Part shown: piece by piece, positions 6,976 to 49,243 of the stretch
How positions within the stretch are numbered: position 1 is the stretch's first letter
Layout of the letters: every line of letters starts with the position of its first letter
NCBI GenBank assembly: GCA_965214775.1
Contig: OZ243974.1
Coordinates: 2,624,001-2,688,000, forward strand
Direction: 5' to 3'
DNA: 64,000 nucleotides
From: Nitrosopumilus sp.
GTDB lineage: Archaea; Thermoproteota; Nitrososphaeria; Nitrososphaerales; Nitrosopumilaceae
Notes under the pieces: model-generated
Database searches by the model: none
What the model saw: the letters and a program-made list of their open reading frames with translations, nothing else
What the model was told of the DNA's origin: nothing
Program-made: the position numbers and the translations under genes

Positions 6976-7265
6976 GCCCGTACCATACGGAGGATGACTC
7001 CATGACTCACTTTGCATTCTCCGGAATCCCTGCAAATGTCTACCTTATCTCGTCATCATTGTTGCCGACTCTTGTGTTGCTCAGCACCTTGCCTTTCTTG
7101 TCCATCACCGCGACCTAGATGAACTCCTTGTGCACGTCCAGGCCGACATGCTGCTGCACCGCCTTTGATTTCACACGTATCCTCTTTTTTGGAGTAATCT
7201 GTCTGTTTGCACTGCCCTTTATTTTGGCACCATCTGAATTTTGTTTTTGAGACACATATGATTAC
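6976..7265 (-). pseudogene. IS110 transposase N-terminal remnant (paralog of 42242)
   Basis: VGLDVHKEFI*VAVMDKKGKV...VMESS with in-frame stops; DNA similar to 42235-42505. Confidence 0.85.
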
Positions 7266-7272
7266 ATTTGAC

Positions 7273-8181
7273 TTAGCTGTTCCCGTAAAACCCCCCCAGC
7301 ACTGCTGCGCCCAGCATACCAGACGAGTCTCCTAGTCTGTTTTGCAGTATGGGCGTAGTATTCCTGTCCCCGTAAAGCGAATGACGGCGAACACTTTCCA
7401 CCCCCTCGTCGTACAGGAACCGTATGTTGGATACCCCTCCACCGACGACTATGACATCAGGATCCAGTATCGAGATGACGCCTGCCAGTGCCGTCCCAAA
7501 ATCGTCTAGGAACTCCTCCTTCCATCTCAGGCCGTTCTCCGATTCAAGAAGGGACGGCGATGCGACGATCGCTGGGACCGTTTCGGTGCCACCTGTGATC
7601 TCCGTCCATCTGCGTTCAAGCGCAGGGCCCGATATGTACATTATGGCGCATCCCTTTCTTCCGCAGCTGCAGTCGACGCCGTTGTGGTATAATGTTGCAT
7701 GTCCCCACTCCCCTGCCAGACCCATGCGCCCGTCCTGTATCGCCCCATCTATTACTATGCCGCCTCCTACCCCCGTTCCCATTATGATGCCAAACACGGT
7801 ACGATACTGCCGCCCTGCACCCATGGTGGCCTCGGCCAACGTGAAGCAGTTTGCGTCATTTTCGACAAAAACCCTCCGTGACAGTGACTCCTCCAAGCCC
7901 TTTCTTATGTATGCGGCGTATTCAGACGAGGGAGAACCTGGCATGCCGATGCCGACGGTGGCATCACCCCCCCCCCCTCTCCGTGCCGTTTCGGCGGATT
8001 CGACGTCACCTACAAGTCTGGTGATCGTCTCCACGGTGTCATTCAAGTCGTTTTGTGGGGCAGCAACGCGTTTTCTTGACACCATGTTGTACGAGCCGTC
8101 CAGACGCACCGCCTCGATCTTGGTGCCCCCGACGTCTACGCCTATTCTCCATTGTGCATCCGTCGCTTCCTGAAGCCCCAT
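7273..8181 (-). CDS. ROK family sugar kinase
   Basis: GVDVGGTK, VENDANCFTLAE, GTGVGGG, GEWGH...CSCGRKGC motifs. Confidence 0.92.
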   Translation of the reverse strand: MGLQEATDAQWRIGVDVGGTKIEAVRLDGSYNMVSRKRVAAPQNDLNDTVETITRLVGDVESAETARRGGGGDATVGIGMPGSPSSEYAAYIRKGLEESLSRRVFVENDANCFTLAEATMGAGRQYRTVFGIIMGTGVGGGIVIDGAIQDGRMGLAGEWGHATLYHNGVDCSCGRKGCAIMYISGPALERRWTEITGGTETVPAIVASPSLLESENGLRWKEEFLDDFGTALAGVISILDPDVIVVGGGVSNIRFLYDEGVESVRRHSLYGDRNTTPILQNRLGDSSGMLGAAVLGGFYGNS

Positions 8182-8301
8182 AAGAATACCGTATGACGGT
8201 CGTATATATAGTGACGATTGAAAGTCTCTGAGTATGTGGTCGTAGTAACTATGCGTAGTAACCAATCATAAAAAGGACAAGAAAATTTTCACCAATAGAA
8301 C

Positions 8302-9320
8302 TATACTGACGATCATTGAAAATTTCGCCTTCCTTACACGCGGCGCTCAAGATATTTGTAGATGTCAACCTTGATGGAACACGTCCTAAAGTATTCTGAG
8401 ACGGCTCTTTTGAGGTGATCTGCCGTATCGTAAAAGACAGATGTGACCAGCCTGTACTTGGCGTCCTTCCAGATTGGCTCTATGCCACTCAGCTCCGGCC
8501 TAGCTACCGGCAGGTACAGCAGGACAACGTCGGGATTTTTCTTCAGGTACCTGCGGACCCTTCCGGTCTTGTGCTGTGCTGCGTTATCCATCACAATCAG
8601 AACCTTTCCCCACTTTTTGTGCGCCTGCTTGAGATAACGCACAAAGTTTATGCTGTTGAACTTGTCGTATGTGCGCATCAGCCTGGTTCCGTCGTCTGCA
8701 ATCGTTCCGTATACCACGACACGTTCCCTCCTGCCGGATCGTTGCACCTCGATCCTGTCCCCCACTGGCGACCAGAACTTTCTGCCGTCCCTTCCCGTAC
8801 TGACGAATATCGACTCGTCCTGTACGGTTATCCTAAATCCGCGCCTTTTTGCAAGCGCAATCGTGTCTTTTGCCTCCCTTTGCCACCGTCTTACCTCCTT
8901 TGCGTCGGCAGCATTTGCCAGCTTGGTAGTTGTCGTCTTTAGCGAGAATCCCATCGTGTGCAGGATTCTTCTGATGCTTCCCACGCTGTATGTGACATGC
9001 AGCCTGCGGCGCACCCAGTTGCACAGCTTCTTCGGGGTGAGCTTTTCCATCCTGCGCAACTTTGTGGCGATCTTTTTTATCCTGCCGACTGGGACCTTTG
9101 GCTTTTTGCCCCTGTCAGGGGAGTCACGAAGGCCGTCAACGCCGTCAAGCTCGAATCTATTGATCCACATCTGTACTGTACGCTGTGTCACGTTGGCAAT
9201 CTCTGCGGTCTGTGCGGTGGTGTTGCCAAGCAGTACGGAGCGCACCGCTAGGATTCTGGTATAAACTCTGTTATCCTTTTCGACACATATGGCATCCGTG
9301 AGGATTTTCGTCTTGTCCAT
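8302..9320 (-). mobile_element. IS630 family element; transposase 8334-9320 intact, 5' end displaced by IS110
   Basis: HTH plus DESIF, DNAAQH, PELSGIE catalytic motifs. Confidence 0.9.
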
Positions 9321-10062
9321 GTCAGGAGGGCCATGGATGGAGATCTCCCATATGAAATCGTACCTAATCCTACCGTGGACCCTTGCCAGCTCGATGTTCC
9401 GAATCAGGACAATGTTGCTATGCGATGCATCCTCTTATACTTTCTCTGCGTGAGAGTCTTGTTCTGAGTGCGGTACTCTTCTCCGGTGGTCAGCATGTGC
9501 CAGATTATCTCCAGCATATGCCTTGCAACTGCAATCTTTGCCTTCTGCCATCCTCGTCTCTTTCTTATCCTTTCATGTATCGCACCAAGCCTTGGGTCGT
9601 TTCGTGCTGCGACTGTGGCCGAGTTGACAATAGCCTGGCACAGCCACACGGATCCCTGCTTTGTTATGCCGCCTCCTTTGTGTCTGTCTGCGCTGTCCCT
9701 GCGCGAGGGAGTCAGCCCTGCATACGAGACGAGCTTCTCCGGAGTGGCAAACCTCCTGATATCTGCTATCTCAGAGATTATCGTCAGTGCAGAGACATGG
9801 CTTATTCCAGGCATGGTCATAATCGTCTTGGCCCTCGGATCGCTTTCGGATACGGAGGCAATGCTGCGCTCCAGATCCTTTATCTGATCCTGTATCCTCT
9901 TGATGTCATCAAGGTACATCTTCACCGTTGCCGCGTCAATCTCTGACATCTTTATCCCGTCTTGGATGTACTGTATGGCAGAAATCGTAAACGTCTTGTG
10001 CGTGGGCAGATCATAGTCATATTTTGCAAGTATTGCGTGTATCTTGTTCTTGCACCTGGTGG

Positions 10063-10173
10063 GTAACAGGTCGGGCTCTGGAAGCTGTTCCTGATTTCAG
10101 GCACAGATTCCATTTGATCGGCATTCATTAGTGGCAAAATTCATGCCTGAACTTCCAGAACCCGACCTGTTAC
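10063..10173. mobile_element. 111-bp IS66-type MITE
   Basis: GTAACAGGTCGGG...CCCGACCTGTTAC TIR; 8-bp TSD CCTGGTGG at 10055-10062 and 10174-10181. Confidence 0.92.
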
Positions 10174-10619
10174 CCTGGTGGCTTCTGCTGTCTTGCCGGT
10201 TCTGGTCCTGCCCAGCATTCTGAGGTCCCTATAGTGCTTGTCAGGCACAAACGACTCTGGCAGCATGTCTGCTCTGAGCAGGTCGGCAAGTATATTTGCA
10301 TCCACGCGGTCGTCCTTTATCTTGGCGTGCGCTATCACCTTGACCTTTGCCGGATGCACCAGCACGGTGTCTATCCCGCAGTCCTCAAGCGTGTCATGTA
10401 CGATAATCCAGTAGTTGGCAGTGGATTCGCATACTGCCCTGATTGGCAGCTGTCCCGGATATGCCTTTTTGAGGTTTGTTGCAAAATTCGTTGTTGCCAA
10501 AACGCTGTTCTCAAACTTGGATCGCTCAAGCAGCTTGCCCGAGTCGTCCTTTACTGCTGCAACGCATGTCTTTTTGTGTACATCTATTCCTGCGTTGATC
10601 ATGTTATCACCTCCTTTTT

Positions 10620-10790
10620 GATCAAAATGCCTGATCCAGGCGGAATCTCCCATTCACCGTCTTCTGCGCGGTATATTGCTTTCCGCCTGCTGTTGCGAGT
10701 CAGTCTACTGAACACCCTTGTACATGGTAAGTTCCAATCGACTCTCAGGCCCAACAGTAATAGTATATCACAGGATACGGATAAGATTTC
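10620..10790 (-). ncRNA. Putative IS110 bridge RNA (element A)
   Basis: Two stem-loops (GAGTC/GACTC; GGCGGAA/TTCCGCC) with internal loops containing CAGTAGAC (= left junction) and ATGGGAGAT (= right end). Transcript ends are estimates. Confidence 0.8.
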
Positions 10791-10805
10791 ATATAGCGTC
10801 TACTG

Positions 10806-11566: not shown

Positions 11567-11678
11567 GATCTCCCATATGAAATCGTACCCAATCCTACCG
11601 TGGATCCTTGCCAGCTCGATGTTCCGAATCAGGACGATGTTGCTATGCGATGCATCCTCTTATACTTTCTCTGCGTGA
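11567..11678 (-). mobile_element. Solo right end of IS110 element A
   Basis: Near-identical to 9342-9453. Confidence 0.9.
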
Positions 11679-11679
11679 T

Positions 11680-12922
11680 AGTTTGTTGCATAACCCTTCC
11701 TAAAATTTGAAATCTGACTGAAAATCACCAAAATGATCAACTAATCCTTACCGAAAAAGTAATGGATCATGAGGATGCAACATACGGTACAAGTTGATAC
11801 ATACGGACAATGCAAAGTACGTAAAGAAGTGGGGCAGGCCCGATCGTCAAGTACGACCAAGGTTGAGAGAAGGATTTCAAGGTTGCCAACCGCCACAAGG
11901 AGGGTTCCCCGTTCCTGTATGCAGACGGCTTGATAATGGCTGGCGTTGTCCTCAGGATCGCATTCATGATTCCATACAGGCAGCTGTCAAGCATGCTCGG
12001 GGAGATGCCACGGGGCACGGATTCGCCGTGCCACACCACGATATACGGAAGGATGTAGAAGCTTGACGTCGACATTGCAGAGAACATAATTACGGTGCGC
12101 GACAAGTCCGGCGACATGGTCATGATAGATGACGCCACGGGCCTCAAGCAGCACGACTGGGGCGAGTGAATACGCAAGAAATGGAAGGCAAGGCGCGGAT
12201 TCGTCAAGATGCACCTGATGGTCGACGCAGACACCAAGCAGGTGCTGGCAGTATCTGTCACAGATGAGACAGTCGGCGACAACACTGAGCTGCCTGCACT
12301 GCCTGGGGAGGCGGCCGGGAACATCAGAGAAGAGGAAGAGGAGGGCTGCTCCGATAGTGCAGATGCAGTCAAGATCCCCAACATGTTTGCAGCCGGGATC
12401 TCGCCGCTTATCCTGCTCGGCACCGGCGAGGACCAGAGTACGCCTGGCAAGATCCCACTTGCAGGCGGCGGATACTGTTCAAGGAAGAACGTAGCCGAGT
12501 GCCACAAGCGCGGTACAAGGCCATTCATACGGCTTTTGACAAGCTGCACTGCAAGGGACATGGGCGCCGGCGACAAGTAGGGCATGCTTGTCAAAAGCCA
12601 TCTCGGGGGAGGCCCAGAGGAGGCTGTGGGCGATCTATCAAAGGAGGAGAGGCAGGAGAACCTGCGGTACTGGAAGAGCACGGCTGGCTATGGTGCAAGG
12701 TGGATAGTCGAGATCGTGGTATCTGCCATAAAGCGGATGTTCGGCGAGGACGTAAAGGCCCTCAAGTGGTCCAATATAGTGCAGGAGACAAAGTTGAGGA
12801 TATGGCTGTACAACAAGTGGATCACAGAGGAGGAGGAGGAGGAGGCAGCTGCCATGTAGGAACCTAGCGCCGGTGGGGATCCTGGAGGATTGACAGCTCT
12901 AGTCGGAGTTATGCAACAAACT
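11680..12922 (+). mobile_element. IS5 family (IS903-like) element, transposase pseudogene
   Basis: TIR AGTTTGTTGCATAAC; IDDATGLK...GE*IRKKW...KMHLMVD...GYGARWIVEIVVSAIKRMFG with stops and frameshifts. Confidence 0.85.
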
Positions 12923-41973: not shown

Positions 41974-42045
41974 CTGCCAAAGAGATAATCCAAAATTAGA
42001 AGCCGTACGAATTTTTCAAGTAATTTCACATATCTTGTATTGTAA

Positions 42046-42506
42046 GAGACGTTATATCAAATCTTATCCGTAGCGGACGCCATATTATCCGTGTTGGGCC
42101 CAAGAGCCGAAGTAAACTTGCCACACATGAGGGCGCGTAAGAGACAGGCTCAGAGTAGACGGACGACGAAATGCCACATAATCGAGGGCGAATGGGAGTT
42201 TTCCGTTCAGTTGGGCACACACACTTTGATCGTAACCATATGTGTCTCAAAAACAAAATTCAGATGGTACCAAGATAAAAGGCAATGCAAACAGACAGAT
42301 TAGCGCAAAAAAAAGGATATGTGTGAAATCAAAGGCGGAGCAGCAGTATGTCGGCCTGGACGTGCACAAGGAGTCCATCCAGGTCGCGGTGATGGACAAG
42401 GACGGCAAGGTCCTGGGGAATACAAAAATAAGCAACAGGAACAGCGAGATAAGAGAGATGTTTGCAAAGATTCCGGATAACACCAGGTGCGTCATGGAGT
42501 CCTCGT
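42046..42506 (+). mobile_element. IS110 family element B, left end plus truncated recombinase (42242-42506)
   Basis: YVGLDVHKESIQVAVMDKDG...CVMESS; left end homologous to element A. Confidence 0.88.
42055..42230 (+). ncRNA. Putative IS110 bridge RNA (element B)
   Basis: Same scaffold as element A with compensatory stem GAGCC/GGCTC; loop segment GTAAGAGAC equals own junction 42042-42050. Confidence 0.8.
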
Positions 42507-49119: not shown

Positions 49120-49243
49120 GATCTCCCATATGAAATCGTACCTAATCCTACCGTGGACCCTTGCCAGCGTGATGTTCCGAATCAGGACGATGTTGCTATG
49201 CGATGCATCCTCTTATACTTTCTCTGCGTGAGAGCCTTGTTCT
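49120..49243 (-). mobile_element. Solo right end of IS110 element A
   Basis: Near-identical to 9342-9465. Confidence 0.9.

Follow-up and report, generated by a model that had tools for sequence, protein, structure and literature searches.

Putative bridge RNAs with diversified guides at the left ends of archaeal IS110-family insertion sequences

In the insertion sequence IS621, a bridge RNA is encoded in the left non-coding end, upstream of the DEDD/Tnp recombinase gene. According to the available portions of the reports on this element, the RNA has an internal loop for the target and a second one for the donor, and each of them reads both DNA strands; target and donor have a dinucleotide core in common, and the first loop is variable while the second is conserved (PMC11208160; PMC11208158). 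Members of the IS110 group (IS621/ISEc21 type) carry the bottom-strand, or left, guide 5′ of the top-strand, or right, one. In the IS1111-type seekRNAs (ISEc11, ISPa11 and ISKpn4), the complement of the top strand comes first and the RNA sits downstream of the gene; subterminal inverted repeats of 7–17 bp are described for this type, and natural reprogramming among relatives has been reported (PMC11187229). The excerpt of that source used here names as exceptions ISMtsp17, with an upstream non-coding region, and ISHvo10 and ISAcp5, with non-coding regions on both sides, and gives no guide analysis for them (PMC11187229).

The DNA analysed here, hereafter the window, is a 64-kb stretch (64,000 nt) corresponding to positions 2624001-2688000 of the 2.83-Mb, single-contig genome of a Nitrosopumilus sp. 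(G000). Two of its regions, belonging to element copies A and B, are very probably the left non-coding ends of IS110-superfamily insertion sequences that encode a bispecific bridge RNA (seekRNA). Their predicted layout resembles that of IS621 in the position of the RNA upstream of the recombinase gene, in the two internal loops that each read both strands, in the dinucleotide core common to target and donor and in the combination of a variable first loop with a conserved second one. It differs from IS621 in the order of the guides, which is reversed in both loops, the right half (top strand) being paired here by the 5′ side and the left half (bottom strand) by the 3′ side (PMC11208160). Further differences from the parts of the IS621 descriptions considered here are the core, which is AG or TG instead of CT, the presence of 10-bp subterminal inverted repeats and a right-donor guide of 3-4 nt located away from the core (PMC11208160; PMC11208158). 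The guide order equals that of the IS1111-type seekRNAs, and the subterminal repeats, which covary between element types (ATATGAAATC, ATATCAAAT, TACGAAATC and others), are likewise an IS1111 feature; unlike in that type, the RNA lies upstream of the recombinase gene, and the right end past the stop codon (about 60-190 nt) gave no model match at the loci searched. ISEc21, of the IS110 type, also carries its RNA upstream and has its target inside other insertion sequences, but there the bottom-strand match comes first and the top-strand match lies 3′ of it, which is opposite to the arrangement found here (comparisons limited to the excerpted text of PMC11187229). At the level of the predicted RNAs, the layout is a mixed IS110/IS1111 one, which joins features that separate both groups. 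The mechanism itself is already known, and is predicted here with a guide order swapped relative to IS621 and in an archaeal lineage. No study of this archaeal IS110 family was found in the literature on Nitrososphaera IS110 or on upstream archaeal bridge RNAs; judging by the accessible part of one preprint (bioRxiv 10.64898/2026.10.21.760802), large catalogues of bridge-RNA variants may already contain it.

In the proposed mechanism, the bridge RNA would form two internal loops, with a basal stem closing and a hairpin capping each of them. On its 3′ side, loop 1 would match the left flank together with the core, and on its 5′ side it would complement the core and the right flank. In loop 2, the 3′ side would pair with the right end of the element and the core (ATGGG+AG), while a 3-4-nt stretch of the 5′ side would pair with left-end bases 3-5(6). 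With the help of this RNA, a DEDD/serine recombinase, of which three intact paralogues exist elsewhere in the genome, would join a circular copy (right end-AG-left end) to a target (left-AG-right). By analogy with IS621, ISEc11 and ISEc21, we infer that the RNA is produced, associates with the recombinase and guides its action. The fold, the four relations between guides and DNA, the common core, the boundaries of the elements and the unoccupied targets are shown by comparing sequences.

Copy A lies on the minus strand at 9345-10801, both AG cores included, and is 95% identical to an intact paralogue (G000 2030284-2031621). Its cores, at 10800-10801 on the left and 9345-9346 on the right, were placed by means of the unoccupied target sites of paralogues, and alignment to the intact paralogue describes the copy as an element of the 1,338-bp type plus a 119-bp insert. 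This MITE-like insert (10063-10181), bounded by inverted ends of 13 bp (GTAACAGGTCGGG) and accompanied by a duplication of CCACCAG, divides the recombinase reading frame into 10141-10602 and 9404-10062; a form that skips the 119 nt is present among contigs of public runs. The subterminal inverted repeats are ATATGAAATC at 10785-10794 and GATTTCATAT at 9350-9359. The putative bridge-RNA gene occupies the left non-coding end (10620-10801) and matches the covariance model R1 with 148.2 bits (E 1e-37), copy A being one of the training sequences. Its target-binding loop (10697-10744), recognised from the sequence, the comparison of copies and the consensus structure, is closed by a basal stem of GAGTC (10740-10744) and GACTC (10697-10701). 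Within it lie the right-target guide GGAACT (10730-10735), the distal hairpin (10713-10729) and the left-target guide TTCAGT+AG (10705-10712), followed by AC (10703-10704), the first 2 nt of the element. The left target bases CAGT (10802-10805) are identical to 10707-10710 in this guide. The donor-binding loop (10640-10686), assigned from the sequence, the consensus structure and the triplet test described below, has a basal stem of GCGGA (10682-10686) and TCCGC (10640-10644), the right-donor guide triplet AGC (10678-10680), a distal hairpin (10655-10673) and the left-donor guide ATGGG+AG (10647-10653).

Copy B, on the plus strand, is reduced to its left end with the bridge-RNA gene (42047-42231), homology to other B copies stopping at 42231; R1 matches it at 42047-42225 with 140.1 bits, again as a training sequence. 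Its left target GTAAG (42042-42046) precedes the core AG (42047-42048). The target-binding loop (42104-42151; sequence and copy comparison) is closed by GAGCC (42104-42108) and GGCTC (42147-42151) and holds the right-target guide GTAAACT (42112-42118) and the left-target guide GTAAG+AG (42137-42143), then AC (42144-42145). The donor-binding loop (42159-42206; sequence, consensus structure and triplet test) has a stem of ACGGA (42159-42163) and TCCGT (42202-42206), the triplet GAC (42165-42167) and the left-donor guide ATGGG+AG (42192-42198). The subterminal inverted repeats of the B type are ATATCAAAT and ATTTGATAT. B-type right ends, recovered in the genome from two fragments only, precede TTTACCCC, as predicted by GTAAACT. 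Truncated by another element at 42231/42232, copy B lacks a recombinase gene of its own. The intruder is a third IS110-family element type, C, whose start (42232-42500, plus strand) has about 30 matches in the genome and an N-terminal fragment matching PF01548, and which is itself broken near 42500. Type C also occurs at about 6997-7265 on the minus strand. Its upstream end is short, measuring about 115 nt, and A-type copies whose guide is CAAACAG have the left end of C itself as a target. Both window copies are unable to make recombinase, and their RNAs could act only in trans.

A first-pass annotation of the window had noticed that each copy repeats its own junction within loop 1, and its reading of the letters is borne out. 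On the minus strand, CAGTAGAC occurs at the left junction of A (10805-10798) and in loop 1 (10710-10703), the strand running ...TTTTCC CAGT AG AC GCTATATGAAATCTTATCCGTA... at 10810-10770 and ...GGGTGTT CAGT AG AC TGACTC... at 10716-10697. On the plus strand, copy B repeats GTAAGAGAC (GTAAG AG AC) at 42042-42050 and 42137-42145, and the offset from junction to loop is 95 nt in both copies. Loop 2 of A likewise shares ATGGGAGAT (10653-10645) with the right end and 2 nt of its flank (9351-9343), and the ATGGGAG said to be conserved in B is present at 42192-42198. The common scaffold is also real: the left ends align at 77% mean column identity, contain AAATCTTATCCGTA, TGTTGGGCC and GAATGGGAG in both copies and differ by compensatory stems (GAGTC/GACTC in A, GAGCC/GGCTC in B). 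However, two dinucleotides in each of these 8-9-nt matches do not vary between A and B, namely the crossover core AG and the AC with which the element begins, so that only CAGT and GTAAG are informative. The informative identity therefore amounts to 4 nt in A and 5 nt in B, and the window alone is weak evidence; that the matches exceed chance is shown by the further copies and the other genomes described below.

The left end of A has 34 matches in its own genome by sequence search, and R1 finds 32 in the genome and two in the window. The intact copy at G000 2030284-2031621 measures 1,338 bp and has a 359-aa frame with PF01548 and PF02371; for the intact paralogue at L004:1699-2778, these domains score 97.9 bits (6e-28) and 81.7 bits (5e-23), both over the cut-offs. 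An N-terminal DEDD_Tnp_IS110 (PF01548) domain combined with a C-terminal Transposase_20 (PF02371) domain identifies an IS110-family DEDD recombinase. The intact paralogue protein is distantly similar to the PDB chains of IS621 and ISCro4 (E about 1e-12; IS621 E 4e-12), and the alignment to IS621 places the active-site serine and acidic residues in register (residues as given in the portion of PMC11208158 used). Six copies are 0.48-kb deletion derivatives that keep just the left and right ends and retain the whole RNA structure. In contigs of four public runs, the forms seen are limited to copies that lack the 119-bp insert, to the 983-nt deletion form and to one contig in which 666 other letters join the left flank to the right end; no circle junction was found in them, and contigs cannot show transcripts.

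The state of these copies bears on whether the RNA could be real but the system extinct in this genome, its matches being fossils of past activity. Both window copies are broken, many genome copies are interrupted or chimeric, and with the queries used no intact B-type element was found in the genome, the copy at 403775 being interrupted and cut and the others truncated. Against extinction, a protein search lists three full-length A-type recombinases with an uninterrupted frame of 359 aa and 96-100% identity, left ends within one guide class agree at 97-98% of positions, and one copy is inserted in the guide DNA of another. An extinct system is accordingly considered unlikely, although a substantial chance is left to it.

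The interpretation as a bridge RNA is consistent with the predicted fold. RNAalifold, applied to 21 sequences, returned exactly four helices, which are the basal stem and the distal hairpin stem of each loop. In this consensus structure 95.1% of cells pair, versus 35-48% with slid partners, and 15 of 18 pairs change on both sides in a compensatory manner. On four of five measures none of 500 shuffles reached the observed value, while for the fifth, further pair types, 129 of 500 did; these controls are generous, the structure having been derived from the same alignment and the sequences being related. U.G pairs at two positions in 19 of the 21 sequences fit an RNA of the sense strand. Folded singly, the two left ends do not exceed shuffled sequences in stability (z -0.88 and +0.09), and Rfam at the gathering score gave 0 matches in the 64-kb window. 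Overall, the model describes a structured RNA with two stem-flanked internal loops in a non-coding end, as expected for a bridge RNA or seekRNA.

The second loop appears to be specific for the ends of the element itself, with the same core. Its 3′ side, ATGGG+AG, equals the right end plus core, and the variants ATGGA-TG and ATGAG-TG accompany matching right ends. On its 5′ side, the three bases adjoining the basal stem are, for 26 of the 34 sequences scored by script, the reverse complement of left-end bases 3-5. The complementary combinations are of nine different kinds, and the observed count was attained in 0 of 20,000 shuffles, a figure that overstates significance because the sequences are kin and not independent. 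Among the eight non-matches, two reflect an offset error of the script and three more would be G.U pairs. Unlike that of IS621, this right-donor guide, which is short, leaves out the core. A right-donor guide in the form of a direct reverse complement of core and left end, placed beside the hairpin, had been looked for and is absent, the covarying triplet at the basal stem being found instead. In the 3′ guides, the core is followed by two bases, AC for loop 1 and either AT or TT for loop 2, which equal the first bases of the non-cognate partner. They recall the handshake guides of IS621, although on the other guide (PMC11208158, in the part available), a likeness that we infer from the sequences.

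The first loop, in turn, appears to read the target on opposite strands, core included: its 3′ side equals the left flank plus AG, and its 5′ side, directly before the hairpin, the reverse complement of the core plus the right flank. Left flanks were compared by eye for 29 copies in the genome, 26 of which were usable. Contiguous identity of at least 6 nt (6-8 nt ending with the core) was found in 17/26 and one internal mismatch in 7/26, while in the remaining two (G000 2169398, with flank CAGTAG and guide TTATAG, and G000 1690530) the flank is unrelated to the guide. These two cases count against guidance of insertion by the RNA. The A-type guide classes TCAGTAG, (T/C)TTATAG, CAAACAG and TTACAG and the B-type class GTA[A/T]GAG each sit at matching flanks. 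Right ends read ...GATTTCATATGGG AG and then the flank, and right guides correspond to right flanks as follows: GGAACT to TTCC..., ATGATCT to ATCAT..., (T)GATCT to ATC..., AATCT to ATT... and, in the B type, GTAAACT to TTTACCCC (TTTAC). The earlier assignment of loop 1 to the target and loop 2 to the donor agrees with the way in which the guides track flanks and element ends.

Searches with the present queries detected a homologous recombinase gene in 78 of the 401 genomes that were sampled from the class (including the unpublished G283), the closest recombinases being about 55% identical. The upstream regions of 24 loci in other genomes align on this same scaffold. When the 7-mer guide was taken from fixed alignment columns and sought in the upstream flanks, 18 of the 24 loci had their own 7-mer in their own flank (17 at the junction, 1 off-site) versus 8 of 552 other pairings, L059 (G283) being among the misses. 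Covariation of loop and flank had been proposed as a check, and the suggested natural reprogramming of guides among paralogues is supported. Right ends were found for 17 loci; by eye, right guide and flank agree perfectly (core + 3-7 nt) in 10, with one mismatch or a 1-nt bulge in 5 and poorly in 2. The core is AG in most loci, and TG replaces it in L070-72 and L075-77, in both loops at once. R1, built from 21 sequences, was found in 13 of 151 genomes (including the unpublished G132). Among 15 hits in 14 loci outside the training set, several of them paralogues of training sequences, 12 have a common substring of at least 8 nt with their own junction, versus 2 of 210 other pairings. Guide and flank disagree in L097, L099 and L103. 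In L097:1501-1679 (G084), the left end begins with the reverse complement of a right end (CTCCCATACGAAATC), which may be an inversion at the subterminal repeat.

These joint changes weigh against the view that the structure is a mere 5′ leader regulating translation of the recombinase, or a binding site at the DNA level, with the protein picking the target and the flank matches due to descent within repeated targets. The structure does lie directly upstream of the ribosome-binding site and start codon, many targets are repeats in which the copies may be related by descent, and no transcript was observed, the public runs with the window sequence including no RNA run. Descent nevertheless leaves unexplained the joint change of guide and flank in unrelated genomes, the simultaneous change of the core in both loops and the tracking of the right flank by the loop-1 5′ side as reverse complement, and the recombinase-less 0.48-kb derivatives keep a structure that would be needless for translation. 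This view is therefore judged improbable.

Unoccupied sites contain the left flank, a single AG and the right flank in one piece. Those recovered comprise seven of AAGGTTTATAG/ATCTCCGCC, in the leader of an IS630-like element, five of CTATCTTATAG/ATCGGGTGG, two of CAGTAG/TTCCTA and 18 within two mismatches of AAGCTTATAG/ATCATGGGCG, 3 of which are identical and 13 of which read ATCATAAGCG. The single AG implies that the core is AG, as first proposed, and that the bases upstream of it belong to the target and not to the element; CAGT and GTAAG are accordingly target bases, present before insertion. That the 8-9 nt at the junction instead belong permanently to the element, repeating an internal sequence in direct orientation at its terminus and saying nothing on target choice, can be dismissed as wholly improbable: AGAC is constant in copies A and B and several A copies have the same junction octamer, but the unoccupied sites hold the guide-matching bases, and the bases upstream of AG differ in nearly all of the 24 + 15 elements and track the loop.

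Under the bridge-RNA interpretation, the guides of copy A (TTCAGTAG and GGAACT) predict the target CAGTAG/TTCC, which the left junction matches over 6 nt. The first-pass annotation had found partial matches to the right half of the target. This stands for A, whose right flank ATCTCCATCC (ATCTCC) mismatches its own right guide GGAACT, predicting AG/TTCC, and the cause is that this flank comes from the site of another guide class. It is the leader of an IS630-like transposase gene (gene 8334-9320, with its 5′ leader 8334-9344, minus strand; Pfam DDE_3 and HTH domains), which is a site of the TTTATAG/ATC class. On the left, the flank consists of another repeat, which breaks off after about 49 nt. 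The two flanks of A are therefore not one target and stem from two places, for which the simplest reading would be recombination between two A-type copies. Because these flanks are non-contiguous, no unoccupied site for copy A was found within two mismatches in a search of its own genome. The IS630-like element to the right of A (8100-8345 of the window) keeps its right inverted end (...CAATGATCGTCAGTATAG), and its left end is lost. Solo A-type right-end fragments lie at 11570-11681 and 49123-49243 of the window, both on the minus strand, followed by ATCATGGGCG and ATCAGGTGG with no left end nearby.

Taken jointly, the elements may form a distinct, mainly archaeal lineage of bridge recombinases, in which an IS1111-type guide order and subterminal repeats were moved to the upstream end. 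Guides would be diversifying inside single genomes (at least 4 classes here, each with its own target family in other mobile elements), and the recombinase-less 0.48-kb elements would be "guide-only" parasites that borrow the recombinase in trans while choosing their own targets. This joint reading is tentative, being plausible rather than probable. The sequence evidence would place RNA-guided recombination in an archaeal class, in which promoters and cell machinery differ from those of the bacterial models. It would also make this genome a natural experiment, with about 30 copies, several guide classes and matching occupied and empty sites, including mismatched or half-matched insertions, insertion into guide-coding DNA and RNA-only mini-elements.

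Several further copies deserve mention. One mini-copy (G000:C1:2787934-2788520) has entered the loop-1 DNA of another copy at the position directly following TTATAG, guide-coding DNA being here a half target for its own guide class. At G000:C1:1348541-1348672, a copy is cut exactly after its left guide and core and joined to TTCC..., the right target that its guides predict; this junction looks like a recombination product at guide DNA. A chimera with a B-type left end and an A-type recombinase gene extends from G000:C1:1100551-1100778 onward. A haloarchaeal IS110-family element (L081; Haloarcula sp. plasmid NZ_CP142029.1, 253276-255238) has, by eye, the same upstream two-loop layout; its junction and loop 1 both contain GAGATTGAC, its loop 2 and right end both contain ATAGGTG, and TG is its core. 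The nearest plasmid-borne matches to the recombinase of the present family are 36-38% identical and are named "IS110 family" only. A match in Ensifer has a long non-coding region that is seemingly located downstream.
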